Source: an uncultured Ignavibacteriales bacterium
Lineage (GTDB): Bacteria > Zixibacteria > MSB-5A5 > GN15 > FEB-12
Assembly: GCA_964571235.1 (NCBI GenBank)
Contig: CAZNAI010000003.1
Coordinates: 656,700 to 720,699, forward strand
Reading direction: 5' to 3'
DNA length: 64,000 nucleotides
Below, in pieces: positions 3,019 through 58,475 of the stretch. The notes beneath the pieces were generated by a model. It was given only the letters and a program-made list of their open reading frames with translations, did no database searches and had not been told where the DNA came from. The position numbers were made by a program, and so were the translations under genes. Each line of letters opens with the position of its first letter. Position 1 is the stretch's first letter.

Positions 3019-3087
3019 GAAGATGTCGAAACCTCGCCCGTCGGGCGATCACGCCTTCGTCGTGACAAGGGATTTCGACCTACAGAA
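3019..3087 (-). repeat. GTAG-type REP-like element (family D, long form) inside the nuo operon
   Basis: The minus strand reads GTAGGTCGAAATCCCTTG ... GGTTTCGACATCTTC around two inner hairpins. The same termini occur at 41880-41942. Confidence 0.75.
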
Positions 3088-3102
3088 GCCGGGGAGTCGC
3101 GC

Positions 3103-3609
3103 ATGAAGCCGATACCTGTATACGCCGAACAGATGCCCGGAGGGGGGATTATTGCCACCTCGCTTGAGACGATCCTCTATCAGGGTCAGGCGAAATCGCT
3201 TTGGTATCTGCTTTTCGGCACCGCTTGCTGTGCGATTGAACTGATGGCGACTGGCGCCAGTCGGTACGACTTTGACCGATTAGGGATGATCTTTCGCGCC
3301 TCGCCGCGCCAGGCCGATTTGATTATTGCCGCCGGAACGATCACCAAGAAAATGGCGCCGCGACTGCGCCGTCTGTATGATCAGATGGCCGAGCCACGGT
3401 ATGTGATCGCGATGGGCGGATGCACTATTAAAGGCGGGCCGTTCTATTACGATTCGTACGCGGTCGAAAAAGGGATCGACCATATTGTGCCGGTCGACAT
3501 TTATATCCCCGGTTGTCCGCCACGGCCCGAATCGCTCCTTGAGGGGTGCATACACCTTCAGGAAAAAATCAAGAAACAGAAACTTGCCGAGAAGTGGCCG
3601 AAGAAATGA
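3103..3609 (+). CDS. nuoB: NADH-quinone oxidoreductase subunit B
   Basis: Contains the CCAIE, GGC and PGCPPRPE motifs that ligate cluster N2. Confidence 0.92.
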
Positions 3610-4082
3610 CCCGCGACGACCTCAAGGCATATATAGCCGCAAATTTCGGCGACAAAATGACTCTCTTGGAGAGCGGTAAGTTTGATCCGTTCTATAAGAT
3701 CGAAGCGAATGACTTAGTCACTTTGAGTAAGTCACTTCGTGATGATCCAAGTCTTAAGTTCGACTATCTCTGCAATCTAGGTGGGACCGATACCGGCACG
3801 AACTTTGAAGTTGTTTACTCACTGGCGTCGATTGCGCTGTCGCACCGTATCGATTTCAAGATAATCATGCCGTACGAAAATGCGGCGGTTGACTCGGTTC
3901 AGACGATCTGGCCCGCGGCCAATTGGTATGAACGGGAGATGTGGGAACTGTACGGAATCGACATACGAAATCATGGCAATTTGAAACGATTCTTACTCCC
4001 CGACGACTGGGATCAGGGGCATCCTCTGCGCAAGAATTGGACCGCGCCAGATTTCATCAAACTCCCCGAGGTGCTGACATGA
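3606..4082 (+). CDS. nuoC: NADH-quinone oxidoreductase subunit C
   Basis: The ATG at 3606 overlaps the nuoB stop (ATGA). NuoC-like sequence ...[17 protein letters not shown]... Confidence 0.88.
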
Positions 4083-5182
4083 GCGCGCTCCGCACCGAAG
4101 AGTTTGTGGTCAATATGGGGCCGCACCATCCGTCGACGCACGGTGTCTGCCGCCTCCTACTGACCATGGATGGCGAGCGGGTTCTGCATATCGAGCCGTA
4201 TATCGGATATCTGCACCGCTCGATTGAAAAGATTTGCGAGAACAGAACGTACGCGCAGTGTATTCCGATTTTGGATCGGTTTGAGTATGTGACCGCGATG
4301 TCGTGCAATCATACTTTTGCGCTGGCGGTTGAAAAGTTAGCAGGTATTCAAGTTCCGGAGCGGGCGGAATATTTGCGGGTGATCATGCTCGAGTTGAACC
4401 GTATCAGTTCGCATCTGCTCTGGTATGGAACGACTGCGCTTGATTTGGGCGCGATCACGCCGTTTCTGTATGGATTCCGCGAGCGGGAACTGATCATGGA
4501 TTTGTTCGAGATGACCTGCGGCCAGCGGTTGACCTACAATTATATACGAGTCGGCGGCGTGTCGAGAGATATCCCCGAGCAGTTTGTGCCGAAATGCCGC
4601 GAGGCGGTCAAGACTATCACTGAAAAGATGGCGGACTACGAAGGTCTGCTCAATGAAAATCCGATCTGGGTAGCACGCAATAAGGGAGTGGGGGTACTCA
4701 GTTCGGAAATGGCGATAGCGTGGGGCGTTTCCGGCCCCGCGCTCCGCGCCTCCGGTGTGAAATACGACATTCGCAAGAATGATCCGTACGGGTACTACCC
4801 GAAATTCGATTTCGATATTCCGACCCGCCAAAATGGCGATTGCTACGACCGATATATTTTGCGGCTCGAAGAAATTAAGCAGTCGCTCAAGATTGTTTCG
4901 CAGGCGCTTGACGGATTACCGGCCGGAGATTTCAAAGCCAAGACACCGGGAGTGTTCAAACCGGCGGCGGGGGAAGTGTATAGCCGGATTGAAAACTCGC
5001 GGGGCGAGCTGGGTGTGTACATTTTGTCTGACGGCACCACCAAACCGGTGCGGGTAAAAACGCGCGGCGGCAGTTATAATCAACTTCAGGTTCTGCCGGA
5101 AATCGGCAAAGGTCTGCTTATCGCTGATATCGTCGCGATTATGGCCTCGATGGACATCATCATGCCGGAGGTTGACCGGTGA
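4079..5182 (+). CDS. nuoD: NADH-quinone oxidoreductase subunit D
   Basis: The ATG at 4079 overlaps the nuoC stop. Begins [23 protein letters not shown] and ends ...DIIMPEVDR. Confidence 0.93.
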   Translation: MSALRTEEFVVNMGPHHPSTHGVCRLLLTMDGERVLHIEPYIGYLHRSIEKICENRTYAQCIPILDRFEYVTAMSCNHTFALAVEKLAGIQVPERAEYLRVIMLELNRISSHLLWYGTTALDLGAITPFLYGFRERELIMDLFEMTCGQRLTYNYIRVGGVSRDIPEQFVPKCREAVKTITEKMADYEGLLNENPIWVARNKGVGVLSSEMAIAWGVSGPALRASGVKYDIRKNDPYGYYPKFDFDIPTRQNGDCYDRYILRLEEIKQSLKIVSQALDGLPAGDFKAKTPGVFKPAAGEVYSRIENSRGELGVYILSDGTTKPVRVKTRGGSYNQLQVLPEIGKGLLIADIVAIMASMDIIMPEVDR

Positions 5183-6243
5183 TTCTTCCACTGTCATTTG
5201 AACTGAGCGCCGTTTTTGATTGGCTCGGCGAGCTACTGGCGTCGCTGGGACTCCCACCGATCTGGCAGACAATCGTTTCGTATGTCCTGCTCGGCGCAAT
5301 GATGTTCGGGGTGCTGGCGCTACTTGCGCTCTTTTTGGTTTGGTGGGAGAGAAAAATCTCGGCACATATTCAGCAGAGATTCGGGCCGATGCGCCACGGC
5401 TGGCACGGTTGGTATCAGACGATTATGGATGCGATCAAGTTGTTGCAGAAAGAAGATATTCTCGTTGTCACGCGCGACCGGGTGGTCTTTTTCTGGGCGC
5501 CGGTGCTCTGCTTTGTGGCGGCGTTTTTGGCCTATGTCGCGATGCCGTTCGGGAACGGACTGATTGTCGCGGATTTGAATGTCGGCATACTGTACATAAT
5601 CGCGGTGACAACGTTTACCATTATCTCACTACTCATGGCCGGGTGGGGATCGAATAATAAGTATGCGTTACTCGGCGGGATTCGTTCGGCGGCACAGGTG
5701 GTATCGTACGAAGTTCCAATGGTGGCTTCTATCCTGACCGCTGTGCTTTTTGCCGGGTCGCTTTCGATGGTGGAGATTATCAAGTCGCAGGAAGGGCACG
5801 GGATTTTCAACTGGCTGATATTCAGGCCGCCGTTTGGGATGATCGCCTTTGTGACGTATATCATTGCGGCGACAGCGGAGGCCAACCGGACGCCGTTTGA
5901 TATTCCCGAAGCCGAGCAGGAATTGGTTGCCGGATACAATGTCGAATATTCCGGGATGAAGTTCGCGATGTTTTTCCTGGCTGAATTTGTCAATATGTTC
6001 ACGGTGTCCGCGATTGCGACCACGCTCTTTTTGGGCGGCGGAAACGGACCGCTTCTGCCGTCGTGGATTTGGTTCATGGGCAAGACACTGGTAGTGATTT
6101 TTCTTCTAATGGTGATTCGCTGGACGATGCCGCGATTGCGGGTTGACCAATTGATGGAGTTCGCCTGGAAGTTCTTAGTGCCGGTCACCTTTGCGAATCT
6201 GATGATTGCCGGCATATTCAAATTTGCGGGATGGTACTGGTAA
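5179..6243 (+). CDS. nuoH: NADH-quinone oxidoreductase subunit H
   Basis: 354 aa, polytopic. ND1-like sequence WERKISAHIQQRFGP. It directly follows nuoD, so nuoE/F/G are not between them. Confidence 0.93.
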   Translation: MILPLSFELSAVFDWLGELLASLGLPPIWQTIVSYVLLGAMMFGVLALLALFLVWWERKISAHIQQRFGPMRHGWHGWYQTIMDAIKLLQKEDILVVTRDRVVFFWAPVLCFVAAFLAYVAMPFGNGLIVADLNVGILYIIAVTTFTIISLLMAGWGSNNKYALLGGIRSAAQVVSYEVPMVASILTAVLFAGSLSMVEIIKSQEGHGIFNWLIFRPPFGMIAFVTYIIAATAEANRTPFDIPEAEQELVAGYNVEYSGMKFAMFFLAEFVNMFTVSAIATTLFLGGGNGPLLPSWIWFMGKTLVVIFLLMVIRWTMPRLRVDQLMEFAWKFLVPVTFANLMIAGIFKFAGWYW

Positions 6244-6247
6244 GCCG

Positions 6248-6832
6248 ATGGGAATGTTTACAGACATCAAAAATCTCCTGATCGGGATGAAGATCACCAG
6301 TAAGCATCTGGGGAAACGTGCGATCACGCTCCAGTACCCCGAGCAGAAGATGCCGATGACCGAGCGTTCGCGCGGAATAGTGGTCCTTCTTTCAGATAAA
6401 GAGACGGGTGAGCTCAATTGCACAGGGTGTATGCTCTGCGCCAAAGCTTGTCCGACCGGGGCGATATTTGTCGATGCGCCGCGCGATGAGAACAAGAAAC
6501 GACATCTTAAGAGCTTTGTTGTCGATCACGGGCTGTGTTGTTTCTGTGGACTGTGCGAGGAGGCCTGCAATTTCTGTGCGATCAAGATGACGCCCAAATA
6601 CGAATTTTCCGATCTGACCAAAGAGGGATTGGTCTGGGATATGGGCAAGTTGCAGGAGATGGGGCGCGACGCGGCATATGTCGATACGCGCAAGAAGAAA
6701 GTCGCGCCGGCCGCAAAACCAGCCGCTCCGGCGGCGGAAGTTGCCACTGCGCCTGCACCACCGTCACCTGATCCGACACCTGCGACAGAGCCGAAACCAG
6801 CTGTTAGCGATAGCGGAGCGGAGGGAGCATGA
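6248..6832 (+). CDS. nuoI: NADH-quinone oxidoreductase subunit I with Ala/Pro-rich C-terminal tail
   Basis: Two 4Fe-4S motifs, CTGCMLCAKACP and CCFCGLCEEACN. About 50 aa of low-complexity A/P tail. Confidence 0.9.
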   Translation: MGMFTDIKNLLIGMKITSKHLGKRAITLQYPEQKMPMTERSRGIVVLLSDKETGELNCTGCMLCAKACPTGAIFVDAPRDENKKRHLKSFVVDHGLCCFCGLCEEACNFCAIKMTPKYEFSDLTKEGLVWDMGKLQEMGRDAAYVDTRKKKVAPAAKPAAPAAEVATAPAPPSPDPTPATEPKPAVSDSGAEGA

Positions 6833-7341
6833 TAGAATCTATCAGCGGCAGTGATGTGGTGTTCACTATTTTGGCGGTGGTGATCGTTATCGCAGGGCTG
6901 ATGGTGGTTAGTCTGCGAAATATATTCCATTGCGCGCTGGCACTGATCGTTTGCTTGTCGGCGGTAGCGGGAATCTTCATCCTGCTGGACGCCGAGTTTT
7001 TGGCCGCGGCGCAGATTCTGATTTATGTAGGAGCGGTTTCGATCCTGATGATTTTTGCGATCATGCTAACCTCGCGCCTCGGAACGCAAAAGATTGCTCA
7101 AACGAATGAGAATGTTGCCGTGGCGGTGGTAGCGGCGCTGTTTTTCTTCGGGTTCGCCTGGTTTACCATCGATGCCACCGATGTCTGGAATTTGACCGAT
7201 AAGCCCTTGCCGGCGAACAACACATTTGAAATTGGCCGGCTACTTATGAGTGATTTCATGGTGCCGTTTGAAGTGGTCTCGGTGCTTCTGGTTGCCGCAT
7301 TGATCGGCGCGATTATGCTGGCTCGCGAGGAGAGAAGCTGA
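6829..7341 (+). CDS. nuoJ: NADH-quinone oxidoreductase subunit J
   Basis: 170-aa membrane protein in the ND6 position of the operon. Confidence 0.88.
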   Translation: MIESISGSDVVFTILAVVIVIAGLMVVSLRNIFHCALALIVCLSAVAGIFILLDAEFLAAAQILIYVGAVSILMIFAIMLTSRLGTQKIAQTNENVAVAVVAALFFFGFAWFTIDATDVWNLTDKPLPANNTFEIGRLLMSDFMVPFEVVSVLLVAALIGAIMLAREERS

Positions 7342-7640
7342 TGACCCAGTATCTCATCCTTGCGGCGGCGCTCTTTTCAATCGGCCTGTTTGGGGTGATT
7401 ACCCGACGGAACACGATCGGCATCCTGATGTCGCTTGAACTGATGTTCAATGCCGCCAATATCAATCTCGTGGCGTTCAGCAAATTTATCAATGGCGCTG
7501 TGCTGTCGGGGCAGATATTTGCAATTTTCATCGTCGTGGTAGCGGCGGCTGAGGCGACTATCGGATTGGCGATCGTGCTACTTGTCTATCGCAACTGGCG
7601 CGGAATCGACACCGACAACTACAATGTGATGAAGTGGTAG
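7341..7640 (+). CDS. nuoK: NADH-quinone oxidoreductase subunit K
   Basis: 99 aa, 3 TM segments. ND4L-like sequence LMSLELMFNAANINLVAF. Confidence 0.92.
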   Translation: MTQYLILAAALFSIGLFGVITRRNTIGILMSLELMFNAANINLVAFSKFINGAVLSGQIFAIFIVVVAAAEATIGLAIVLLVYRNWRGIDTDNYNVMKW

Positions 7641-7647
7641 CGCGACT

Positions 7648-9756
7648 ATGTTAGAACTTGCCTGGATCATCCCATTTTTGCCCCTCTTGTCGTTTGTGAT
7701 GATCATCTTTTTCATCGGCGGCAAGGAAAAGCTGTCGTCGGGCTTCTCTATCTCAATGATCCTGATCGACTGGATTATCGCGGTGGTAGTGCTTTTCCAA
7801 ATGCTGGGTCGCCACGGCGAGCCGTACGAGGCGTACACCCTGCTGACATCGTTTAAGACATTCAATCTTGAGCTGGGAATATTGGTCGATTCGCTCACGG
7901 CAATTATGCTGGTGGTGGTGACGACTGTCGGGTCGTGCGTGCAGATCTATTCGCTGGGGTATATGAAAGACGACCCCCGCTTCACCCGGTTCTATGCGTA
8001 TCTCTCGCTCTTCTTGTTCTCGATGCTCGGCTTGGTGCTGGCGAACAATTTCTTCATGATCTTCATTTTCTGGGAGCTGGTCGGTCTGACCTCTTATCTC
8101 TTGATCGGATTCTGGTTTGAAAAAAAGTCGGCCGCGGACGCCGGCAAGAAAGCATTTATCACCACGCGAGTGGGCGATCTGGGATTTATCGTCGGGCTGA
8201 TGCTGATCGCCGCTTATTGCGGGACGTTTAATTACGGCGGCGTTTTTGAGAAGGCCGCATCGGGTACAGTTCCGGCCGGTGTGCTGACCGCCGCGGCGAT
8301 ATTCATTTTCTGCGGGGCGGTTGGAAAATCGGCGCAGTTCCCGCTCCATGTCTGGCTTCCCGATGCGATGGAAGGTCCGACACCGGTTTCAGCGCTCATT
8401 CATGCCGCGACTATGGTTGCCGCCGGTGTGTATCTGGTGGCGCGGTCGATGCCGCTGTATGTGACCTCAGCCGATGCCTCGATGGTTGTCGCCACAATTG
8501 GTGTGATTACGTCGTTTATCGCCGCCTCGATTGGCCTCGTACAAAATGATATAAAGAGAATTTTGGCGTATTCGACTGTCAGTCAACTTGGCTATATGAT
8601 CATGGCGCTTGGGCTGTATGGGTACGACACCGCGAGTGGCGGCCATTCGGCCGGGTATGTGGCTGGCACGCTACATCTGATGACCCACGCGTTTTTCAAA
8701 GGACTCCTGTTCTTAGGCGCCGGATCGGTAATCCACGCTGTGCACACCAACGACATTCAAGAGATGGGCGGCCTGCGAGTCAAACAACCCAAGACAGCGA
8801 TTACTTTTATGATCGCGTCGCTGGCAATCGCCGGAATTTTCCCGCTCTCGGGATTCTGGTCGAAAGATGAAATTGTCGCGACTACGTTGCATCACCCGGT
8901 CTTTTTCGTCCTGACCCTCACAATTGCGTTTATGACCGCCTTCTATATGTGGCGGCTATGCTTCCTGACATTCTTTGGAGCGCCGCGCAATCAACACCGG
9001 TACGATCACGCCCACGAATCACCGGGAGTGATGACCTCGCCGCTGTTGTTTCTCGCGGTACTTTCAATCGGCTCCGGGTGGGTAGCAATGCCGTGGCTGG
9101 AGCATGGATTTTCATCGTTTGTGTATCATGGCGAACCGCATCACGCCGAGCCGGAGTATCTGCTCATGTTGATCTCAACGGTCGTCTCTGTGTGCGGTAT
9201 CGGATTGGCCTGGTTGATATATTACAAGAAGGCGATTTCGGCTGACGTGATAGCGGCCCGGTTCAAACCGCTCCACACCCTCTTGTGGAACAAATATTAT
9301 TTCGACGAGCTGTATGATCTGATCATTGTCCGGCCAATTCTGGCGCTGGGGACGTTTCTGTGGAGCTTCGACGCGAAAATAGTCGACGGCGCGGTTAATG
9401 GCGCTGGCTGGCTGACAATTGTCTGGTCAGATGCCAAGCAGTGGTTTGATGTGTATGTCGTCGACGGCGCAGTTAATGGCGCCGGCTGGATAGTGCAAAA
9501 GACCGCTGGAGTTTTACGAAAACTGCAAAGCGGGGCGGTGCAGTTCTACGCGCTCTTTATTGTCGGAGTTATTGTCGCCCTCGGCATTTTCAAATATGAA
9601 GTGCTTTCAAATTCCGGGACGCCGGGATTGATCGCGATCGCCTTTGTACTTTTGTCGCTTGCCCTGGGATATGTGTCGCGCAATATCTGGAAACGTCCGG
9701 CCGCCGGGGCGGTCTTGGAACCTGAAGAAAAATCCGTGCCTGTGGAGGATAGATAG
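7648..9756 (+). CDS. nuoL: NADH-quinone oxidoreductase subunit L
   Basis: 702 aa, ND5-like antiporter subunit (...WLPDAMEGPTPVSALIHAATMV...). The VDGAVNGAGW segment is duplicated. Confidence 0.93.
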   Translation: MLELAWIIPFLPLLSFVMIIFFIGGKEKLSSGFSISMILIDWIIAVVVLFQMLGRHGEPYEAYTLLTSFKTFNLELGILVDSLTAIMLVVVTTVGSCVQIYSLGYMKDDPRFTRFYAYLSLFLFSMLGLVLANNFFMIFIFWELVGLTSYLLIGFWFEKKSAADAGKKAFITTRVGDLGFIVGLMLIAAYCGTFNYGGVFEKAASGTVPAGVLTAAAIFIFCGAVGKSAQFPLHVWLPDAMEGPTPVSALIHAATMVAAGVYLVARSMPLYVTSADASMVVATIGVITSFIAASIGLVQNDIKRILAYSTVSQLGYMIMALGLYGYDTASGGHSAGYVAGTLHLMTHAFFKGLLFLGAGSVIHAVHTNDIQEMGGLRVKQPKTAITFMIASLAIAGIFPLSGFWSKDEIVATTLHHPVFFVLTLTIAFMTAFYMWRLCFLTFFGAPRNQHRYDHAHESPGVMTSPLLFLAVLSIGSGWVAMPWLEHGFSSFVYHGEPHHAEPEYLLMLISTVVSVCGIGLAWLIYYKKAISADVIAARFKPLHTLLWNKYYFDELYDLIIVRPILALGTFLWSFDAKIVDGAVNGAGWLTIVWSDAKQWFDVYVVDGAVNGAGWIVQKTAGVLRKLQSGAVQFYALFIVGVIVALGIFKYEVLSNSGTPGLIAIAFVLLSLALGYVSRNIWKRPAAGAVLEPEEKSVPVEDR

Positions 9757-9761
9757 TCAAT

Positions 9762-11246: not shown

Positions 11247-11250
11247 GACC

Positions 11251-15659: not shown

Positions 15660-15705
15660 GGGCGGGGACGTACAGGATCACCCTCCTTGCATTTCGTGTT
15701 TTGTG

Positions 15706-15731
15706 GTTGGCGGACATTCCTGTCTGCCAAC
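15706..15731. repeat. hairpin upstream of the RAYT gene (cognate REP, inverted orientation)
   Basis: gttggcggacattcctgtctgccaac forms an 11-bp stem with one G-U pair and loop ttcc. Its reverse complement shares 17 nt with the two downstream copies. Confidence 0.8.
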
Positions 15732-15785: not shown

Positions 15786-16310
15786 GTGGCTCAAAACCGA
15801 GTATCCCTAAAAGGACCTGCGGCGGTTTTTGTAACGACTACCGTTAACAAGTGGATTCCCCTATTCGCCGAGAGTCGAATCGCGGAAGTACTGCTGGTTC
15901 AGATGCGCGAAACCCTGAACCGCTATCAGATCGCGACGATTGCATATGTGCTTATGCCGTCACACCTGCATGCAATATTTGGCTTTCCCGAAATCGAGGG
16001 GCTTTCCGAAGTAAAGCAGAAACTAAAGGGCCATTCGGCTCACCAGATTCGGCCATTGCTCACTCCCGCTCAACTAATGCTATTCTCCGTCAATGGAAGA
16101 TTCGCTCTCTGGATGCGCCGGTTCGATGATTTGATTATTTGGTCAGATACTCAATTCAAAATCAAGGCGGAGTATATTCACAACAATCCGGTGAAGGCTG
16201 GCATTGTCAATTCCGCAACTGAGTATCAATATTCGAGCGCACAAGACTGGCTATTGGGCACACCGGGGATTTTCCCGATTGACAAGACTTGGAAATGGCA
16301 ATCCGAGTGA
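15786..16310 (+). mobile_element. REP-associated tyrosine transposase (IS200/IS605 TnpA-like Y1 HUH enzyme)
   Basis: 174 aa. HUH motif in MPSHLHAIF. Catalytic Tyr motif AEYIHNNPVKAG. No TnpB partner. Flanked by inverted hairpins. Confidence 0.8.
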
Positions 16311-16325: not shown

Positions 16326-16429
16326 GGCAAATTGAGCGCGGCGGACAGGAATGTCCGCCACGCACAAATACTCCGATGGGTGATAGAGCGAAATTTGAGC
16401 GCGGCGGACAAGAATGTCCGCCTCGCACA
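16326..16429. repeat. two direct copies of the RAYT-cognate hairpin (63-nt period)
   Basis: aaattgagcgcggcggacaggaatgtccgccacgcaca at 16328-16366. aaatttgagcgcggcggacaagaatgtccgcctcgcaca at 16391-16429. Confidence 0.85.
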
Positions 16430-19837: not shown

Positions 19838-19897
19838 GCGCTCCTCTGCTGGGCGGGTTCGTCTTTGAGCTCGCTAAAGTGACATTAGATTGAAGTG

Positions 19898-19931
19898 CCG
19901 TCAGGCCTCCCGGCCTGACGGCTTTTTTTTG
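19898..19931 (+). terminator. rho-independent terminator after secF (family-A-like hairpin)
   Basis: gccgtcaggcc-tccc-ggcctgacggc followed by an 8-T run. Confidence 0.8.
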
Positions 19932-19961
19932 TAAATAATGCCGCTGTCAGGGCGGGTCTTG

Positions 19962-20090
19962 TAGGTCGGGTTCCGATGATCCGCCGCGACGCGTGCGGAT
20001 CGAGAAACCCGACATCTTTTTCCCCCTGTCCAAGATGTCGGGTTTCTCACTCGTCCGGTCAGGCCGGACTCGCTCAGAACCCGACCTACA
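19962..20090. repeat. REPIN-like inverted doublet of family C REPs
   Basis: Left unit GTAGGTCGGGTTC...GAAACCCGACATC (19962-20017). Right unit GATGTCGGGTTTC...GAACCCGACCTAC (20035-20090). Each unit encloses a different inner hairpin. Confidence 0.8.
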
Positions 20091-25474: not shown

Positions 25475-27294
25475 TGGGGGAGATGCGTATCCGATCCTGT
25501 CGTTTTGTTCTCGGTTGTATTGCGATTGTCTTCTGGGCACAAGTGGTTTCGGCGGAACAACCGGCCGACGCGACCTACGAAGACAAGATCACAGCCGTCC
25601 GGCAATTGATTAAATCGAAAAATGTCGACGGCGCTATCGCCATGCTCGAAGTGATGTTCGAGTCACGCGCCGACGATCAGCTTGTAGTCAATCTCCTTCG
25701 CAATTGTTACGAAGATACGCGAAACTGGGGGAAAGCCGAACTACTGGCGCGGCGACTGGTTGAGCGCGATCCCGGCAATTACAACTGGCGGCTCTATCTG
25801 GCCGAGTCTCTGGCCAAAGAAAATCTGGTAGATTCAGCGGTGCGGGCATACAAAGAGACCTTTGCCATGACGCCGGCATCCGATTCGGGGCGGTATTACG
25901 CAATCTTACACAGCATGATGGCGTTCGGCGCTCATAGCGGCGCACTTGAAATTGTAGATTCAGTACGGGCTCGATCAGGCAATACACGTGCGTTCGGGCT
26001 TCAGCGCGGTCAGCTCCTGCAAATGGAACGTCGGTTCGCCGAGGCGACAGAAGAGATGTTCACAGTGCTGGCCACTGACACCGGATACGCGGCAGGCGAC
26101 GCCGAGGCACAGCTATTGAGCCTACTGGCCTACCCCGAAGCCACTGCTGAGGCCGAGAGAGTGCTGAGTTCAATTTCAAGCGAAGTCAACAGCGGCAGGG
26201 CGCTGAGGCTGTTGATGACTCACGCTATCAAGTCGGGACAATACGATCGGGCGCTGGCGTTTGCCATTCGCCAGGACACGATTCAAAAAGGCGAGGGCCA
26301 GCCGCTGGCAGACTTTGTCCGCCAGTGTTTTGACCGAAGGGCGTATGATCCAGTGGTTAAAGGCGCCGATTACACTCTGGCCCGCTACAAAAACGGCTCG
26401 TTCATGTCGGAACTGCGCTTTGACCGGGCGGAGGCGCTTGCAATTCTGGGCCATCATGACGCGGCCTTGTCGGCGTACCGCGAGATAGCTTCCGCCGCAC
26501 CCACGCCGGCCGATTTGTCCGAGGCCTACTGCGGCATCGCGATTTTGTATCTCGACCAGTTGAACGATCCAACCAGTGCACGGACCTACTTTGACAGTGT
26601 AAAAGCACAGTCCGGGCGTGGACTGCCGTATCTCAGAGCAGTTCGACTGGCGCCGCTGTGCGATATTCGCGGAGGCGACTACGCATCGGCGAGAATCACA
26701 CTGAACCGAATTATCGAGCAGAGATTTTCCGATGACATCATGGAAGAGGCGGAGTACCGTCTGGCGATTTTGGATTTGTTCGAGCACAGGTTTGATTCCA
26801 CCAAAGCGGCCCTTAAGAAACTGACTGTCGATCATCCGCGGGGGTTGTATGTCAACGACGCCATGCAACTGATGATTGATATGGATCCGGTACTTCCCGA
26901 TACGACTTTGCTGGTTCTGTATGCGCGGGGTGTCGAATGCGAGATGAGGCGAATGACTGATTCGGCGCGTCGGGCACTGGGTAAGTTAATCGACGCCACC
27001 GATCAGAAGTTGGCCGATGTGGCGCTCTATCGTTTGGCCAAAATGGAGCTTGAACAAAGCGACACAACCGCCACCTTGCGGGCGCTGGATCATCTCACCG
27101 AGAATTTCGCAGAGTCATTTTACCGGCCGTATGGATTGAAACTGAAAGCCGACCTGATTGTTGACCGACCGGGTGAGCGGGACAAGGCGCGACTGATCTA
27201 CCGCGAACTTCTGGAAAAGTACCCGAACTCGCCGTTTGCTTCTGATGCCCGCACGCGCTTACGGGCGCTTGAAAAAGAAGGGCGGGTCGGTTAG
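25474..27294 (+). CDS. TPR repeat protein
   Basis: 606 aa with a signal peptide and repeated TPR-like helical pairs. The start overlaps the upstream stop; an alternative ATG is at 25483. Confidence 0.75.
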   Translation: MGEMRIRSCRFVLGCIAIVFWAQVVSAEQPADATYEDKITAVRQLIKSKNVDGAIAMLEVMFESRADDQLVVNLLRNCYEDTRNWGKAELLARRLVERDPGNYNWRLYLAESLAKENLVDSAVRAYKETFAMTPASDSGRYYAILHSMMAFGAHSGALEIVDSVRARSGNTRAFGLQRGQLLQMERRFAEATEEMFTVLATDTGYAAGDAEAQLLSLLAYPEATAEAERVLSSISSEVNSGRALRLLMTHAIKSGQYDRALAFAIRQDTIQKGEGQPLADFVRQCFDRRAYDPVVKGADYTLARYKNGSFMSELRFDRAEALAILGHHDAALSAYREIASAAPTPADLSEAYCGIAILYLDQLNDPTSARTYFDSVKAQSGRGLPYLRAVRLAPLCDIRGGDYASARITLNRIIEQRFSDDIMEEAEYRLAILDLFEHRFDSTKAALKKLTVDHPRGLYVNDAMQLMIDMDPVLPDTTLLVLYARGVECEMRRMTDSARRALGKLIDATDQKLADVALYRLAKMELEQSDTTATLRALDHLTENFAESFYRPYGLKLKADLIVDRPGERDKARLIYRELLEKYPNSPFASDARTRLRALEKEGRVG

Positions 27295-41879: not shown

Positions 41880-41942
41880 GTAGGTCGAAATCCCTTGCCG
41901 CGACAGCGGTCCCGCCAACGGCGGGATGTTTCGACATCTTCC
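41880..41942 (+). repeat. GTAG-type REP-like element (family D, long form)
   Basis: GTAGGTCGAAATCCCTTG ... TGTTTCGACATCTTC. Its termini match the element at 3019-3087, but the inner hairpins differ. Confidence 0.75.
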
Positions 41943-41948: not shown

Positions 41949-41998
41949 TCAAATTGACTTCATGTCCAAACTGACTTCATGTCAAAATTGACTTCAGG
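41949..41998 (+). repeat. 17-nt tandem repeat x3
   Basis: tcaaattgacttcatg / tccaaactgacttcatg / tcaaaattgacttcagg. Confidence 0.8.
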
Positions 41999-42017: not shown

Positions 42018-42320
42018 GTAGGTCGGGTTGCCAGCCCCGTTTACGGGGCGCAGCTACCCGACAATGTCGCGAGGCAAAGCATAGTAGGTCGGGTTGGCAA
42101 GTTACCCGCGTGAGCGGGGAACGCAGGCTACCCGACACTTTCTAAAACCGCAGATGTCGGGTAGACAAATCGTGTCGTCTCCGACGATTCGATTTGCCAA
42201 CCCGACCAACGAAGACTCGTCGTGGTGTCGGGCGTCCTCACCCGACACCGATTGCGGTCAGGTGGGGACGCCTGACCGCACGATATCGAATACGGCAGGA
42301 GCACAGGGCTCCTGCCCTAC
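42018..42320. repeat. BIME-like cluster of at least six REP-type hairpin units
   Basis: Family C units at 42018-42063, 42084-42137 and 42153-42210 (inverted). Short hairpin at 42224-42249. Family A hairpin at 42255-42279. GTAGGGCAGGAGCC hairpin at 42294-42320 (minus strand). Confidence 0.8.
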
Positions 42321-42370
42321 GTCAATCTTTGTAGCTTGCGCTATGACCGGCCTTCGCAAGATATTCTCCC

Positions 42371-44052: not shown

Positions 44053-44098
44053 CAATTCGTGCCGTCGGGTGCCCTCACCTGGCGGCTTGTTTCTCTTC

Positions 44099-46313: not shown

Positions 46314-46372
46314 TTCGTTGAATCGCGTCTCGACTACGCTCGACGCGTCGCACCCATGATGGTGTATGGAAT

Positions 46373-46410
46373 GAAGATGTCGAAACCGCAGGGGTTTCGA
46401 CCTACAGAAG
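46373..46410 (-). repeat. family D REP (short form)
   Basis: gaagatgtcgaaaccgcaggggtttcgacctacagaag. Further copies at 57966 and 58442. Confidence 0.75.
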
Positions 46411-46423
46411 ACAAAGAGTGAAA

Positions 46424-46545
46424 GTAGGTCGGGTTCTGAGAGAGTTCGCCGTGGCGAACGAGCGAAAAACCCGACATCGATGTGATTGAAAAATTAGTGT
46501 CGGGTTTCTTGTCCCGCCAAAGCGGGACGACGGAACCCGACCTAC
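46424..46545. repeat. REPIN-like inverted doublet of family C REPs
   Basis: GTAGGTCGGGTTC...AAAACCCGACATC followed by GTGTCGGGTTTC...GGAACCCGACCTAC. Confidence 0.8.
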
Positions 46546-46570
46546 GAAGAGAGAAAATCAGGAGTTTGAA

Positions 46571-50720: not shown

Positions 50721-50930
50721 GTGGCTGAAAACAAAGTTGCATTGAAAATGGTTGTCGACGGCAAAGAGCGGGACGTCACCTTTGAGGAACTCGCGTTGTC
50801 GAACAATCTTGCCCAAGAGGCGCTGGTGCGTCTCTTGATCGAAAAGAAGTTGATAAGCGCAAAAGAACTGCTTGAGTGGATTGAAAAGGTCAAGCAGGAG
50901 CGCTATCGCGAACTTCCCGGAAAGGGATGA
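50721..50930 (+). CDS. small hypothetical protein
   Basis: 69 aa, GTG start, helical and charged. Tightly packed with the next two ORFs. Confidence 0.45.
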   Translation: MAENKVALKMVVDGKERDVTFEELALSNNLAQEALVRLLIEKKLISAKELLEWIEKVKQERYRELPGKG

Positions 50931-50933
50931 GCA

Positions 50934-51419
50934 GTGACCGCCGCACCGGAGCACACCCGTAGAGATTCAGCAGAGGTTGCGCCGCACGATTACGACGGAC
51001 CCTCGCTTGAGTGGACGGTGCATCCGGTCAAACGCAGGCCGTGGGTGTCGGTGGCAGTCAGTATGTTTATCGTCGTTGTGGTTGTATTGGTTCGGATCAC
51101 CACCGAGTCGCAGGCGTTTGCGGTGCTGGCTATGATTGTCATGGCCGCTTCACTGGCGAAATTCTATTTTCCGACGAAGTATCGCCTGGACTGCAAGGGG
51201 GTGACGGTGAAAACAACAACCCAGACACTTGTCAAAGAATGGAAATTGTACCGGAGTTGTTATCCCGACAAGAACGGCATATTGCTCTCGCCGTTTGCGG
51301 GCACATCGCGGCTTGAGAATTTTCGCGGGATCTACCTGATGTTTCAGGATAATAGTGAGGCGGTCACGGCGTACTGCAAAGAGCGTATTGCGGCCAATCC
51401 GCAAGGCGGGGCGGCATGA
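50934..51419 (+). CDS. hypothetical two-TM protein (possible bacterial PH-like domain)
   Basis: 161 aa. A TM hairpin, then a beta-rich soluble domain. Confidence 0.5.
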   Translation: MTAAPEHTRRDSAEVAPHDYDGPSLEWTVHPVKRRPWVSVAVSMFIVVVVVLVRITTESQAFAVLAMIVMAASLAKFYFPTKYRLDCKGVTVKTTTQTLVKEWKLYRSCYPDKNGILLSPFAGTSRLENFRGIYLMFQDNSEAVTAYCKERIAANPQGGAA

Positions 51420-51874
51420 GCATTTTTCGCGACGCCATGAAGCTCCCCGAACAAGGGCCGCTTCCCGAAGAAGAACAGGTGGTGCTTGAGAAAGTGGCGA
51501 AGAAAGTGGTCGAGAAATCGATGACGGTGCCGGCGATCGTCTTTTTGGAGTCGGTCAAGCCGCTGAACTTTGTCGGGTCACAGGCGATGGTCTTTTTCGA
51601 GCCGATTGTTCAGTCGCTCTTCAATTTGAAAGACTACGACACGTTTCGCTCAGCTTTGGAAAAGCGTCAGACACTTGAGATTTTGATTCAAAAGATCGAA
51701 GCGATGGACGCCGTGTCGCAGGAGCGAGAAAAGCGGGTGAAGGCGTTTATGAAGGAAGAAAAGAAGAAGTGGAAATGGTACCAGCGGTATCTGGGCGTTT
51801 TCTTGCCGAAGGTGACTATTCCTGATGATGTGCTGAATGGTCCCAAGCCAGCCGAGCCGAAGGGCGACATGTAA
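51416..51874 (+). CDS. hypothetical protein
   Basis: 152 aa. The start overlaps the upstream stop. Lys/Glu-rich C-terminus. Confidence 0.5.
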   Translation: MSIFRDAMKLPEQGPLPEEEQVVLEKVAKKVVEKSMTVPAIVFLESVKPLNFVGSQAMVFFEPIVQSLFNLKDYDTFRSALEKRQTLEILIQKIEAMDAVSQEREKRVKAFMKEEKKKWKWYQRYLGVFLPKVTIPDDVLNGPKPAEPKGDM

Positions 51875-51903
51875 ACGATTCGGATTATCGAGAGGGTGTA
51901 GCG

Positions 51904-52884
51904 ATGCGCGCGCATTACGAAATCAAAGACGGAGCGGTGGTAGAGTGCAGTCCCGAACGCGGCAATATTGATGTCTTTTCGGCGCCCGATGAAATCGAAA
52001 AGTCGTATCTGGTAGAGACGCTCGGATTGGATCGCCACGATCTTGAGTCGGCTCTCGACCCCGACGAAATCTCCCGCGTCGAGTTTATCCCCGAACATAC
52101 ATATATCGTCTGGAAGCGGCCGGACAATGTCACCACCGACCAGCAGGTCAGGTTCGGCGTTTCAACCGTCGGATTTGTTCTGCGCGAGAATAAGCTGACG
52201 ATCATTCTTGGCTCGGGTGGGATTCCATTCAGTGACCGTGAGTTTCAGAAGGTATCGACTCTCAACGGCGTCATCCTGCGCTTCTTTTTGAATATTGTCC
52301 GGCATTACTTCGGCCACCTGAAGGCGATCAAGATGATCAACGTCGATCTTCAGGCCAAGCTGAGCACGTCGATGGAGAACAAGTACTTTCTCCAGATGTT
52401 CGCCCTTTCCGAGAGCCTGATCTATTATCTCAACGCGGTTGAAGAAAATGCCTCGGTGCTCAGCAAGATACGTTCCAACTCAGCCAAACTTGGGTTGACT
52501 GAAGAGCAGATCGAAATGCTCGATGATATCATCATCGAACACACGCAGTGCCTGCGTCAGACACAGATTTTCAGCTCGGTGCTTTCAGGACTCATGGATG
52601 CGCGCGGCAATTTGATCAATAATAACATGAACGTCCTTTTGAAGAATTTGACGCTGATCAACGTTGTATTCCTGCCCCTGAATCTCCTGGCCAGTATCGG
52701 GGGAATGTCCGAGTATAGCGCCCTCACCCAGGCGTTTGATTGGCGAATTTCCTATTCACTATTTGTGCTGGCGATGATTGTCATCGGTTGGATGACCTGG
52801 TATGGGTTGACACGCCGAATTGACCGGACGCAGGTTCCGCGGCGCCGTCGACCGCGCTGGGCGCCTAAACTGCGAAAAGGGTAA
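51904..52884 (+). CDS. CorA-family divalent cation channel with a variant GMS signature
   Basis: 326 aa. CorA-like topology with two C-terminal TM segments. The loop reads IGGMSEY (52702-52716) where the canonical motif is YGMNF. Confidence 0.7.
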   Translation: MRAHYEIKDGAVVECSPERGNIDVFSAPDEIEKSYLVETLGLDRHDLESALDPDEISRVEFIPEHTYIVWKRPDNVTTDQQVRFGVSTVGFVLRENKLTIILGSGGIPFSDREFQKVSTLNGVILRFFLNIVRHYFGHLKAIKMINVDLQAKLSTSMENKYFLQMFALSESLIYYLNAVEENASVLSKIRSNSAKLGLTEEQIEMLDDIIIEHTQCLRQTQIFSSVLSGLMDARGNLINNNMNVLLKNLTLINVVFLPLNLLASIGGMSEYSALTQAFDWRISYSLFVLAMIVIGWMTWYGLTRRIDRTQVPRRRRPRWAPKLRKG

Positions 52885-52888
52885 CCGG

Positions 52889-53473
52889 CTATTTATCGCC
52901 GGACTTAGCGGCTTTGTCTATTTCGGCGAGTTTGAATAACTCGATTGAGAGAGCGAGTTGTTCAGCGAACGGCGATTTCATCCCCTTCAAATACACCAGT
53001 TCACCCTCGGCCTTGGCAAGTTCGCCTAAGGCCAAATATGTTTCCGCGCGATACTCCCGGGCCTGCGCGAAGTTAGAATCCAGTGTTAGTGCGCGGCTGT
53101 ACGCGGCCAGTGATTCGTCGAGTTTGCCCAATTTGCGATAGCAGTACCCGAGGTTGTTGTGAGCTTCCTTCATCTCGGGATTGAGCTCAATCGCCTTCAG
53201 AAGATCTTTGACCGCCTTTTCGTATTCTTTGCGGACTTTCGCATCCGATGTCGCGCGATAGTTGTACGCAAAGGCCGAGTCACCCTTTAGCGCTATATCT
53301 TTGGAGTGTTGGATACGTTTGACGGCGCTGTTGTAATGGTCGGTGGCTTTTGCTGAATTTTCGGTCGCTTGTTCTTCGGGCGTTTTTTCATTTGAGCCGA
53401 TGGCAAAAATGGATGATGGTAAGAAGAGACCAAGGGCTATCAATAATCCGGTCATATTCAGAAGCCGTTTCAT
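52889..53473 (-). CDS. TPR repeat secreted protein
   Basis: 194 aa with a signal peptide and about 3 TPR motifs (...AHNNLGYCYRKLGKLDESLAAYSRAL...). Confidence 0.75.
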   Translation of the reverse strand: MKRLLNMTGLLIALGLFLPSSIFAIGSNEKTPEEQATENSAKATDHYNSAVKRIQHSKDIALKGDSAFAYNYRATSDAKVRKEYEKAVKDLLKAIELNPEMKEAHNNLGYCYRKLGKLDESLAAYSRALTLDSNFAQAREYRAETYLALGELAKAEGELVYLKGMKSPFAEQLALSIELFKLAEIDKAAKSGDK

Positions 53474-53563
53474 AGGGACTCCGCTCTAAAGTGTTGATAT
53501 CATCTTAACACCAGCAAGTAGCAATTGTTTCGAAGGTGGTAAGGTCGATAGTCTAACTAAGAA

Positions 53564-53767
53564 ACGCCCTTCGACTCCGCTCAGGGCGACGTTCCGATCA
53601 GCGCAACATCAGGTTGGTATGCGAGTACGCTTTGGCAACCATGTTTTTCTCGTGTGCTGGGAAACTGAATAGTGTCAAACAGCACATTCGATGGGCGCGT
53701 TAGCGTCGGGCTGAGCGGAGTCGAAGCCCGTTCTCATTGGCGTCAGGCCAGGAGGCCTGACGCCACG
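53564..53767. repeat. MITE-like element (family E) plus family A hairpin
   Basis: Left arm 53564-53602 and right arm 53687-53735 contain a 16-bp perfect inverted repeat, cttcgactccgctcag/ctgagcggagtcgaag. Hairpin ggcgtcaggccaggaggcctgacgcc lies at 53738-53767. Confidence 0.8.
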
Positions 53768-53772
53768 TGATT

Positions 53773-56065
<2,293 letters not shown>

Positions 56066-56290
56066 TACATATGTAAGGTACCAACGGGGGGTGGTATTTG
56101 CAAGCAAAAAACTCGATCTATGCCGTTGGGGGACAGCCATTTGCGGCGATGTGATCGGGGTGTTTTTGGGGTATTTTGCGATAGGCGAAATCGCTACGCG
56201 AGAAAGTCATTCCGGTTTGAAAAAGAGAGGGAATAGTGGATATTGGGGGAGAGGATGTGGAATGAAAACGAAAGCTGGAAAAATGCTCTT

Positions 56291-57049
56291 ATGAAATATT
56301 CAGCGGCAATAGCTCTCTGCCTTTGTGGCGCTTTGATTGCGATTTCGCCGGGGTCAATTCGAGCTGCGGATCGCTCTAGGTTAGAGTTCATTAAACCAAA
56401 CGTTGTCGATTCAGCGTGGCTCTGGAGCCATGTGTACTACACACAGAGTCCACTCCAAAAGGGAAAATATCAGATACTAGTGCGGAACTACGAAGAATCG
56501 AAAAGGTTTCTTCCGATTTGGGAGGAGTCCTTTATGCGTCTGAATCTATGGTCTCAATCTTATTTCGATAAACACATTCGCATCCTAACCGCCGGGATTG
56601 ACACCGCTAAGTGGGAAGGTCGAAACGAGCTACGATTCACTATAAGCTACGATTATGTCTTTGATTGGGTAAGACTTCGTTGTGTGGATCGGTTTGTTGT
56701 AGGCGTTGACTCTGCACTAACTACCTTGAAGGTTGAGGACATTGTTAATTCGTCAGGGCCAGGCATGCTAGTTGATGCCAACTTCAGTCGGCCCGTACTT
56801 ATCACTCGCGTACGACCATCAACAACGATTGCGTCTCGCAAGGCAATAGAAGGTGCACTCAAGCGAAATTGCTCGAATGAGAAAACAACTTTCAAAGCTA
56901 CGCTGTCGATTCTTCAAGATGGGTCGGACATAGTTGCGAGCATGAGGTCGGACGATTCCATTAAACCACTATGTGCTGAGTACCTGCTTTTCGACAAAAA
57001 ATATTCAGGTTTGAGCGAATGCCCTGAGGAAACAGTCATCTTTGAATAA
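56291..57049 (+). CDS. hypothetical secreted protein
   Basis: ORF 56243..57049. The ATG at 56291 gives signal peptide MKYSAAIALCLCGALIAISPGSIRA. No family recognised. Confidence 0.5.
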   Translation: MKYSAAIALCLCGALIAISPGSIRAADRSRLEFIKPNVVDSAWLWSHVYYTQSPLQKGKYQILVRNYEESKRFLPIWEESFMRLNLWSQSYFDKHIRILTAGIDTAKWEGRNELRFTISYDYVFDWVRLRCVDRFVVGVDSALTTLKVEDIVNSSGPGMLVDANFSRPVLITRVRPSTTIASRKAIEGALKRNCSNEKTTFKATLSILQDGSDIVASMRSDDSIKPLCAEYLLFDKKYSGLSECPEETVIFE

Positions 57050-57056
57050 GAATACT

Positions 57057-57164
57057 TGGGACGGGCGCGATGATCAGGGGCGCGAGGTGGCCAGCGGGGT
57101 GTATCTGTATCGCCTGACCGCAGGCGGCGTGACGCAAGAGAAGAAGATGGTGTTGGTGCGGTAG
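57057..57164 (+). pseudogene. orphan C-terminal FlgD-Ig/T9SS-type sorting-domain fragment
   Basis: Translates to WDGRDDQGREVASGVYLYRLTAGGVTQEKKMVLVR then a stop. An in-frame stop lies immediately upstream and there is no start codon. Confidence 0.6.
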
Positions 57165-57201
57165 CCAGCCATATGGCTGGACCTTGGGGCTTCGCCGCTT
57201 T
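57161..57201 (+). repeat. GTAG plus 16-nt perfect palindrome (family H)
   Basis: GTAGCCAGCCATATGGCTGGaccttggggcttcgccgct. A near-identical module sits inside pth at 45278-45312. Confidence 0.75.
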
Positions 57202-57408
57202 GTATTCAGAGTAAGTGCGTCATTGGATACGGGTTGATGATCCAAGGCGTCGTGTCTCGTCTCCGCTCGACACGACGGTGGAGGGGGAGACGATTGGTAG
57301 ACGGTTGCCATACGCTGTATTCGCTCGGATACTGAAAGATGATTTTCCTCTTAACAATGTCAAACCCATGTTGAGATTGATCGCTTGGTCACTAATCGAA
57401 ACGGCCTT

Positions 57409-57491
57409 CTTCGTCGCCTCGAGCGGAGTCGAGAGGAGACGCGGTGGATATCAGTCAGACACGCCGTGTCTCGTCTCCGCTCGACACGACG
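57409..57491 (+). repeat. family F repeat, left copy flanking the GIY-YIG gene
   Basis: ttcgtcgcctcgagcggagtcgagagg...cgtgtctcgtctccgctcgacacgacg. A partial third copy lies at 57246-57280. Confidence 0.85.
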
Positions 57492-57546
57492 AATAAACGG
57501 AATGTGATTTAATCAACAGCGCCCTAGACACTATGTTTATGACCTC

Positions 57547-57849
57547 GTGAACCCATGCGTTTACACACTCCGTTGTGCTGATAACAGTCTGTACACAGGC
57601 GCAACGAGCAAATTGGATCGCCGACTTGTGCAACATGCGTCAGGCGAGGTAAAGGGATTTACTTCTTCTCGACTCCCCATCGTTCTTGTGTTCATGGCGC
57701 ACTTCCCGACCATGTATGAGGCTGGTGTCGCGGAAAAAAAAGTGAAACGCTGGTCACGAGCGAAGAAGGAAGCACTGATTCGCGGCGACGAGAAGGCATT
57801 ACACGAACTTGCTTCGTGCAAAAACTCATCGCATTTCTCGAAAAAGTAG
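57547..57849 (+). CDS. GIY-YIG nuclease family protein (UPF0213-like)
   Basis: 100 aa: VYTLRCADNSLYTGATSKLDRRLVQHASG ... EKKVKRWSRAKKEALI. Confidence 0.85.
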   Translation: MNPCVYTLRCADNSLYTGATSKLDRRLVQHASGEVKGFTSSRLPIVLVFMAHFPTMYEAGVAEKKVKRWSRAKKEALIRGDEKALHELASCKNSSHFSKK

Positions 57850-57866
57850 AATCTCATGGCCCGCTT

Positions 57867-57948
57867 TTCGTCGCCTCGAGCGGAGTCGAGAGGTGACGCG
57901 CCGGATATCAGTCAAACACGCTGTGTCTCGTCTCCGCTCGACACGACG
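57867..57948 (+). repeat. family F repeat, right copy flanking the GIY-YIG gene
   Basis: Same orientation as 57409-57491, with about five mismatches by eye over ~82 nt. Confidence 0.85.
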
Positions 57949-57965
57949 GTGAACGAGCAACAGAG

Positions 57966-57999
57966 CATGTCGAACCCGCAGGGGTTTCGATTTACAAAG
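57966..57999 (-). repeat. family D REP (short form)
   Basis: catgtcgaacccgcaggggtttcgatttacaaag. Confidence 0.7.
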
Positions 58000-58441
58000 A
58001 CTGGTCTCTGAACCGGGACAATGGAAGTGGTCGAATTGTGGATGGTACGAGGGAAGAAGAGATGGACCACGGGAAATTGACGCGATTGAGATTTGAGGGT
58101 AGCGGTCGGATTAAGGGATCCCACAGCAAGCTGTGGGGCACCGAAGAGAACCAATGCGCGAATGCCTATCAATTTTCATACAAATCTCATGTAGTCAACG
58201 AATCGGCAAGTTCTGGTATGAAGACCTCGATACACAACTCGCCTATGTTACGAAATCCTGCCGTGCAATTTTACTACAAGATCTATGCGACGACGTCACA
58301 ATCCCGAAAATACCCGAATCATCACAACCGCCACTGCAATAACCAATTGCGATCAAAGAAAACAATTCGTGAAATGCAAAAGTGTACAAACGAAGCCAAA
58401 AAGAAACCCACCATAATTGGTGATCCACATAGAAAAAGAAA

Positions 58442-58475
58442 AGTGTCGAAACCGCAGGGGTATAGACCTACAAAG
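58442..58475 (-). repeat. family D REP (short form, degenerate)
   Basis: agtgtcgaaaccgcaggggtatagacctacaaag. Confidence 0.7.

Follow-up and report, generated by a model that had tools for sequence, protein, structure and literature searches.

Two families of GTAG-tagged REP elements in a Zixibacteria genome, very probably served by two co-resident REP-RAYT systems

The 64-kb stretch of Zixibacteria DNA analysed here, called the window below, contains twelve short palindromic units, most of which begin with an unpaired GTAG tetranucleotide. We propose that these units are repetitive extragenic palindromic (REP) elements of the GTAG-tagged kind, standing singly or as doublets that resemble REPINs (REP doublets forming hairpins), and that their two families, C and D, very probably represent two co-resident systems of REPs and REP-associated tyrosine transposases (RAYTs). 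An original prediction had already read the units as REPs processed by RAYTs, and this reading is supported by the 5' GTAG, the palindrome, the intergenic sites, the inverted doublets and, in other genomes, by RAYT genes that are flanked by these very units. It had left a choice between several co-resident systems and one enzyme that reads the termini alone. The former is now better supported, because the RAYT clade tracks the repeat type, and the latter is disfavoured.

Results

Units in the window

All twelve predicted units are present, their starts having been off by 0-6 nt. They sit in five intergenic regions across 55 kb of the window and are listed here in window positions, corrected after each site had been read and folded.

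3022-3083, minus strand: D-long unit in the nuoA/nuoB spacer, GTAGGTCGAAAT...GGTTTCGACATC, with two inner hairpins
19961-20016, plus strand: C unit that follows the secF terminator and forms the left half of a doublet with GTAG at its outer ends
20034-20089, minus strand: C unit, right half of the doublet, with an inner hairpin unlike that of its partner at 19961-20016
41880-41938, plus strand: D-long unit with two inner hairpins, 21 nt past the stop codon of the Cu P-type ATPase gene
42018-42065, plus strand: C2 unit, GTAGGTCGGGTTGCCAG...GCTACCCGACAAT
42084-42139, plus strand: C2 unit, left half of a doublet with 42153-42210
42153-42210, minus strand: C2 unit, head mutated to GTTG
46376-46405, minus strand: D-short unit, GTAGGTCGAAACCCCTGCGGTTTCGACATC, in the rpsF/rpsR spacer
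46424-46478, plus strand: C unit forming the left half of a doublet; locus L129 lacks this doublet
46496-46545, minus strand: C unit forming the right half of the doublet; 25 nt separate its end from the rpsR start codon
57966-57995, minus strand: degenerate D-short unit, GTAAATCGAAACCCCTGCGGGTTCGACATG
58442-58471, minus strand: degenerate D-short unit with a broken stem, GTAGGTCTATACCCCTGCGGTTTCGACACT

Both strands together hold 13 copies of the octamer GTAGGTCG, against 1.0 expected (at most 4 in 100 shuffles), and nine of these copies are the heads of true units. The others, at 25578(-), 48555(-), 59364(+) and 63977(+), lie inside open reading frames (ORFs) without a closing stem and were rejected. 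The claim that all units share the termini GTAGGTCG...CGAC(A/C)TC was too strong: exact GTAGGTCG...CGACATC termini are found in six of the twelve, and the other six deviate by 1-3 bases, with tails CGACACT (three units), CGACAAT or CGACATG, or with CGACATC after a GTTG head. Deviating heads are found in three units (GTTGGTCG, GTAAATCG and GTAGGTCT); GTAG itself is present in 10 of the 12 units and is replaced by GTTG and GTAA in the remaining two.

The anatomy of a unit comprises the unpaired 5' GTAG, an invariant basal stem GTCG/CGAC, at least four more stem pairs that covary, an interior, and a 3' ATC(T). The two mutually compensating outer stems described originally are real, base type C being GTCGGGTT/AACCCGAC and base type D being GTCGAAAY/RTTTCGAC, and the three units in 42018-42210 add a third sub-type, C2, of the form GTCGGGT(T)GSCA.../...GC(T)ACCCGAC. 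An outer stem of 5-9 bp folds in every unit except one of the degenerate ones. The interior ranges from a 5-nt loop up to one or two GC-rich hairpins, and exceeds 100 nt in relatives; among the D matches listed from metagenomes, the long form is the short form into which one or two small hairpins, in most cases with a GAA loop, have been inserted behind CCCTG. Folded as single-stranded DNA, all nine of the larger interiors are more stable than their own shuffles (z from -1.8 to -5.7), and for eight of them 3.3% or fewer of these shuffles fold better. Pairwise identity among the nine is 39-73% in a forced global alignment and no two of them are identical; as independent repeats, none of the inner hairpins recurs outside its own unit within the window.

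Many loops on the GTAG strand read GAA, GAC or GCA and have a closing C-G pair, and such loops favour DNA hairpins, as in mini-hairpins of the d(GCGAAGC) type. C is enriched directly 5' of GTAG, and CT is frequent on both sides of the units, including within the 3' ATCT. A strand bias of G-T wobbles, considered as a sign of selection at the DNA level, was dropped, with G-T and A-C cases about equally frequent among the matches listed from other genomes.

Three inverted doublets are present (19961/20089, 42084/42210 and 46424/46545), each with GTAG outermost. As single-stranded DNA they fold with z from -8.5 to -10 (-9.6 for 19961-20089 and -10.0 for 42084-42210), and the fold is branched: the base segments of one half, outer and inner, pair with those of the other, and the unlike inner hairpins become side arms. 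Adjacent to the C2 units, the region 42226-42330 holds three further GC-rich hairpins without a GTAG head and folds at z = -6.8. The first of these, GTGTCGGGCGTCCTCACCCGACAC, places the base of family C (GTCGGG/CCCGAC) after GTGGT and is possibly another degenerate unit.

RAYT genes flanked by the units in relatives

In other genomes, canonical RAYTs (WQxR[FY]W[ED]H...DYIHYNPVKHG) lie directly between inverted copies of these units. C-type units flank a RAYT of 159 amino acids in four lineages (L095, L158, L159-163 and L164/165), D-type units flank a RAYT of 165-171 amino acids in five (L178, L214, L238, L281 and L286), and 30-33-nt units of the proteobacterial (P) type flank the RAYTs of L049, L088 and L125 (Zoogloea, Accumulibacter and a Terriglobia metagenome-assembled genome, MAG). 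Four of these loci (L158, L159, L164 and L286) were reached via protein homology alone, and the matching unit type was found at all four. The flanked RAYTs pass the NCBIfam model REP_Tyr_transpos, and a search of PDB sequences with one of C type, P0022, gave TnpAREP (4er8) at E = 8e-18; with the NCBIfam IS200 transposase model, RAYTs score about 20 bits, the cutoff being 55.

The enzymes fall into clades that follow the units. Identities are 52-63% among C-flanked RAYTs, 51-63% among D-flanked RAYTs and 38-52% between the two, falling to 30-44% with the proteobacterial/Terriglobia type and to 24-28% with the RAYT gene of the window. The C and D clades also differ in the N-terminus, in an indel and in WQN versus WQY. 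Where named, the hosts of both clades are mainly Zixibacteria among the best 120 homologues per search, and the S18 protein of the window itself falls in a 90% cluster together with a protein named as candidate division Zixibacteria. Each RAYT examined has one unit type immediately flanking it, and this agreement of enzyme clade with repeat type favours several co-resident REP-RAYT systems over one termini-reading enzyme.

Two of these loci carry unusual doublets. At L158, a metagenome-assembled contig of 668 kb, a C-type doublet stands on each side of the RAYT (3735-3973 and 4485-4723), with interiors of about 110 nt, longer than any in the window. At L164, a doublet with yet another base, GTAGGTCAAATCTCTCCAGAGATTTGAC / GTCAAGCCTCGAAGAGGCTTGACCTAC, lies 3' of the C-type RAYT at about 860-920, showing that one RAYT can border on unlike REP types.

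The window has its own RAYT-family gene, with the following features.

15786-16310, plus strand: sole RAYT-family gene in the window (Pfam Y1_Tnp, 27.7 bits; NCBIfam REP_Tyr_transpos)
15700-15728, minus strand: hairpin or terminal inverted repeat upstream of the RAYT gene, inverted relative to two downstream copies
16333-16429, plus strand: two tandem RAYT-flanking hairpins, GAGCGCGGCGGACA(G/A)GAATGTCCGCC(A/T)CGCAC

The gene scores 100.2 bits with NCBIfam NF047646 REP_Tyr_transpos (cutoff 80), its product has the HUH motif and the catalytic Tyr and contains PSHLHAIF and EYIHNNPV, and its best PDB match is again 4er8, TnpAREP (E = 2e-4). As originally described, a different hairpin, GGCGGACAGGAATGTCCGCC, flanks this only RAYT of the window. 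Its copies at 15700-15728 and 16340-16368 are inverted relative to each other and 90% complementary over 29 nt; the motif has three sites, all adjoining the gene, with no more copies in the 64 kb, and lacks both GTAG and the GTCG base. The product shares 24-28% identity with the C-, D- and P-type RAYTs and, judged by its sequence, is not the cognate enzyme type for family C or D. Together with its inverted hairpins it would be a third REP-RAYT system. The gene and hairpins are invariant in contigs of 98-100% identity, which diverge by 1-2% elsewhere. Two contigs from other assemblies, L003 and L006, terminate inside the downstream hairpins, a hint that this hairpin may be repeated elsewhere in the genome.

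Units and covariation in other genomes

The units are not confined to the window; related ones occur in many genomes, at more than 200 loci in genomes and metagenomes. A scan across genomes with GTAGGTCG-RRWY-N(7-37)-RWYY-CGACATC, with one genome per species, gave at least 119 loci, and a metagenome scan for family D gave at least 120. Among the matches listed, a 30-39-nt form such as GTAGGTCGGGTTAGCGCAGCGTAACCCGACATC is dominant in Beta- and Gammaproteobacteria, Nitrospirota, Binatia, Verrucomicrobia and Terriglobia; Zixibacteria, Ignavibacteria and one Thermodesulfobacteriota MAG have C-like units whose inner hairpins vary; and the exact D-short 30-mer of the window is also found in Ignavibacteriaceae and unclassified MAGs. 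Among the D matches listed from metagenomes, the population is dominated by GTAGGTCGAAACCCCTG(C/T)GGTTTCGACA, the 28-nt core of D-short being the commonest sequence, and one or two master sequences, with their mutational neighbours, dominate the D-short population.

Stem positions 5-8, which the search pattern left free, are fully Watson-Crick in 70 of the 88 distinct matches listed, as against 28 expected and a maximum of 41 when partners are shuffled. The pairs at these positions, among the same matches, are GGTT/AACC (38), GATT/AATC (24), GGTC/GACC (3) and AAAC/GTTT (2). Compensation is also seen in the D-short stem, in which the C-G pair 13/19 is replaced by T-A and by G-C.

Variation among strains

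Lack of mobility at the population level had been named as grounds for abandoning the REP reading, and it is contradicted by a presence/absence polymorphism of the units between rpsF and rpsR, for which strain contigs at several distances were retrieved with the S18 protein of the window. The spacer has three states. In the window, in L130 (94.6% identical) and in L134 it is 257 nt long and contains the D-short unit and the C doublet; in L129 it contains the D-short unit only, an indel of about 140 nt spanning the C doublet; and in L127, L128, L132, L133 and L135 it is an unrelated 84-nt spacer without units, between flanks that are 96-98.8% identical to the window.

In the nuoA-nuoB spacer, the D-long unit is present in all strains compared, and strains of about 97% identity differ in the hairpin next to the GTAG end. 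This first hairpin reads TCACGACGAAGGCGTGA in the window, TCACGCCGAAAGCGTGA in L136 and L145, and CCGCGAAGCGG in L137, L138, L140, L142 and L143, and the second hairpin and both ends of the unit are kept across strains. Aligned with the window, the CCGCGAAGCGG variant shows six single-base gaps, through which two A-T pairs lose both partners, and it resembles the first hairpin of the other D-long unit of the window (41880), CCGCGACAGCGG. Given the symmetric loss of both A-T partners, independent point deletions are unlikely, and it is more plausible that one arm was corrected against the other or that an exchange with another copy took place. Among D-long units from metagenomes, the module TCCGCCGAAGGCGGA can stand first or second, and TCGCGAAGCGA is found with two different partners. 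It is conceivable, though we hold it as a tentative idea that may well be wrong, that inner hairpins are exchangeable modules re-assorted among REP copies with a common base; the exchange might proceed by gene conversion, by template switching at a hairpin or by strand transfer between copies by the RAYT.

For the clusters at 19961 and 41880, queries with the ApbE, histidine kinase and response regulator proteins returned only contigs of 99.98-100% identity, too alike for strain polymorphism to be scored. Upstream of nuoA, the window carries at 1614-2423 a gene of unknown function for 269 amino acids that is also present in other strains, and L136 has in the same place (1624-2691, opposite strand) a 355-amino-acid PIN_12/PIN_8 gene, a small strain-variable island beside the nuo operon.

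Genomic setting and alternative explanations

Several observations weigh against the proposal of two co-resident systems. The pairing of RAYT and unit departs in places from one-to-one: at L164 the unit downstream of the C-type RAYT is of another kind (GTAGGTCAAATCTCT...), and a D unit lies 200 nt from the C-type RAYT of L159. No C- or D-type RAYT was found in the 64-kb window, and none of the best 120 homologues from either RAYT protein search lies on its source contig of 887 kb. Between rpsF and rpsR, comparison of window 46314-46570 with the five closest strains shows the entire spacer exchanged from stop codon to ribosome-binding site, which is not a clean REP insertion, and the L129 indel may be an insertion or a deletion of the doublet, in either direction. 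If two such systems (REPtrons) are co-resident, their single-copy cognate C and D RAYTs would lie outside the window. Look-ups of P0022, P0015, P0039 and P0218 for a cognate RAYT from the same population all led to other samples or genomes.

The mixed neighbourhoods of L159 and L164, the latter with a third stem type 3' of its RAYT, would be readily understood if a single RAYT, whether that of the window or one elsewhere, read only GTAG and the GTCG/CGAC base and mobilised C, C2 and D alike. The GTAGGTCG...CGACATC frame common to all families would fit such an enzyme, as would the finding that the upper half of the E. coli hairpin is not specifically read. We nevertheless regard it as improbable, because the RAYTs examined are each immediately flanked by one unit type and their sequence clades follow that type. 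Nor is the window RAYT a good candidate, given its distance from the C and D clades and hairpins that lack the GTAG and the GTCG base.

About equally improbable, in our view, is that the cognate RAYTs have been lost from the lineage and that the units are orphan relics whose copies only decay or recombine. The absence of a cognate RAYT within 64 kb is compatible with such a loss, although this is a small sample for a typically single-copy gene. Decay is visible in the two degenerate D units, one with a broken stem, and in the C2 unit with GTTG for GTAG, a change that abolishes cleavage by the S. maltophilia enzyme; however, stems are intact in 10 of the 12 units and termini are perfect in six. 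Recent presence/absence and hairpin-replacement polymorphism among strains of 94-98% identity, together with the wide occurrence of both RAYT clades in Zixibacteria, further argues against relics.

The proposal of two co-resident REP-RAYT systems also has to be set against the genomic setting of the units. All twelve are extragenic (between called genes), in the nuoA/nuoB, secF/apbE, Cu P-type ATPase/histidine kinase and rpsF/rpsR spacers and in the non-coding stretch 57850-58750. As some thus stand within operons (nuoA-nuoB, rpsF-rpsR) and others at operon ends (behind secF and behind the Cu-ATPase gene), the units might be mainly RNA elements (intrinsic terminators, mRNA-stabilising hairpins or small RNAs) for which spread is secondary. 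E. coli REPs stabilise upstream mRNA (background in PMC3733652), and the D-short unit has a terminator-like score on the minus strand. This explanation appears somewhat less probable still. The units lie in both orientations, five on the plus strand and seven on the minus strand, all inside plus-strand transcription units, and an Rfam search of the whole window at gathering thresholds matched no family. Separate canonical terminators with 11-bp GC-rich stems and T-runs adjoin them at 19897-19922 (after secF) and 44061-44086 (after the response-regulator gene). The first is 39 nt upstream of the C doublet, so that the REPs stand beside terminators and not in their place, and neither the conserved unpaired GTAG nor the flanking of RAYTs is explained at the RNA level. 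Finally, chance GC-rich palindromes or an assembly artefact are refuted by the more than tenfold enrichment of GTAGGTCG (13 against 1.0), by the loci in other genomes and metagenomes, and by near-identical contigs of the window in several ENA and Logan metagenome assemblies, in which the same units recur in independent assemblies from several projects.

Some further features of the host spacers were recorded. In the spacer 3' of the Cu-ATPase gene and 5' of a two-component system, 2.8 tandem copies of a 17-nt unit, CAAATTGACTTCATGTC (90% matches), occupy 41950-41996, with the D unit at 41880 on one side and the C2 unit at 42018 on the other; they look like reiterated binding sites of a regulator. 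A small, intact GIY-YIG gene (57547-57849) lies directly upstream of the degenerate D units (57966-58471), and in L286 (2721-3537) a GIY-YIG gene is ended after 43 codons by a D unit of the D-type RAYT locus. The stretch of about 900 nt at 57850-58750 has no convincing ORF; tested by tblastn as a decayed RAYT, it gave only noise (best E = 0.07-0.1, not colinear).

Discussion

The units described here fall within a known kind of element. The GTAG REP superfamily (Di Nocera, De Gregorio & Rocco 2013, BMC Genomics 14:522; PMC3733652) is characterised by an unpaired terminal GTAG and stems of 6-13 bp, by sub-families with alternative complementary stem residues, by several families coexisting in one genome, by self-complementary loops (up to 27 bp in Bradyrhizobium) and by dimers with GTAG outside (HH) as the preferred form, all of which have counterparts in the window. 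Covarying stems, self-complementary loops, co-resident families and dimers have therefore been known for GTAG REPs since 2013. The same work describes RAYTs flanked by TIR (terminal inverted repeat)-like repeats instead of REPs, a description that the RAYT of the window fits. What differs is the host phylum, Zixibacteria with relatives in Ignavibacteria, which lies outside the eight phyla of that study, and the interior, which here consists of one or two separate hairpins and exceeds 100 nt in L158. The GTAGGTCGG(G/A)TT and GTAGGTCGAAA bases are absent as strings from its text and supplements, the consensus sequences of its 24 families being given as a figure. Among the papers searched, none links REPs with Zixibacteria, and literature matches to the exact head sequences were only unrelated primers and the like. 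The units are thus known biology in a new host, clearly modular in their anatomy and with some signs that modules are exchanged, and not a new kind of element.

The doublets recall the REPIN-RAYT system (Bertels & Rainey 2011, PLoS Genet 7:e1002132; PMC3116915), in which two inverted REPs likewise form one foldable element, the RAYT is flanked by the same repeats, strains vary in presence and absence, and master sequences dominate. Unlike REPINs, however, the halves of the window doublets carry different inner hairpins, giving a branched fold and not one long hairpin, and among the nine window units with such interiors there is no identical pair. Likeness to the subterminal hairpins of IS200/IS605 elements extends to a HUH/Y1 enzyme family that acts on folded single strands and to a tetranucleotide 5' of the hairpin, in the guide position; in contrast, the units are dispersed alone or as doublets and do not bound an element that travels together with its transposase.

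A possible mechanism can be drawn from the E. coli REPtron (Messing 2012, PDB 4ER8, PMC3479197; PMC8266576). In the E. coli REP, GTAG, the lower stem and the bulge are the specific determinants, the upper half is non-specific and structural, and cleavage occurs at CT (PMC8266576). The enzymes here match 4er8, and the units resemble the E. coli REP in the GTAG 5' of the hairpin foot, in the CT near GTAG and in the 3' ATCT, and in the combination of a specific base with a structural upper half. On the other hand, the sequences differ, there is no obvious conserved bulge in C or D units, and similarity to E. coli TnpAREP is low for enzymes known here from sequence. By analogy with the TnpAREP enzymes of E. 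coli, S. maltophilia and Marinomonas, the Zixibacterial RAYTs would be expected to bind the folded single strand carrying GTAG, to read GTAG, the lower stem and its irregularities, and to cut at a CT close by. Distally, the hairpin would be required as structure only, which would leave its interior able to drift, to have one arm corrected against the other, and to be swapped with that of another copy. Binding and cleavage of the present units by such enzymes is proposed on this analogy. The match between RAYT clade and unit type is as predicted for pairs of enzyme and repeat that co-evolve (Corneloup et al. 2021, PMC8266576).

These results extend GTAG-REP/RAYT systems to the Zixibacteria, with close relatives in Ignavibacteria. 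The GTAGGTCG head with a covarying stem is common to RAYT-flanking repeats of Betaproteobacteria, Terriglobia, Ignavibacteriales and Zixibacteria, and the same pattern is also found in Nitrospirota, Binatia and Verrucomicrobia. The two sister RAYT clades, whose repeats are alike in GTAG and the four basal pairs and different in the upper stems, with interiors from 5 to more than 100 nt, provide natural material on the question of which parts of a REP its transposase reads. In practical terms, such repeats break short-read assemblies of these genomes, and they stand inside essential operons, in the nuoA/nuoB and rpsF/rpsR spacers. If inner hairpins are indeed exchanged as modules, REP populations would evolve combinatorially, besides by point mutation.

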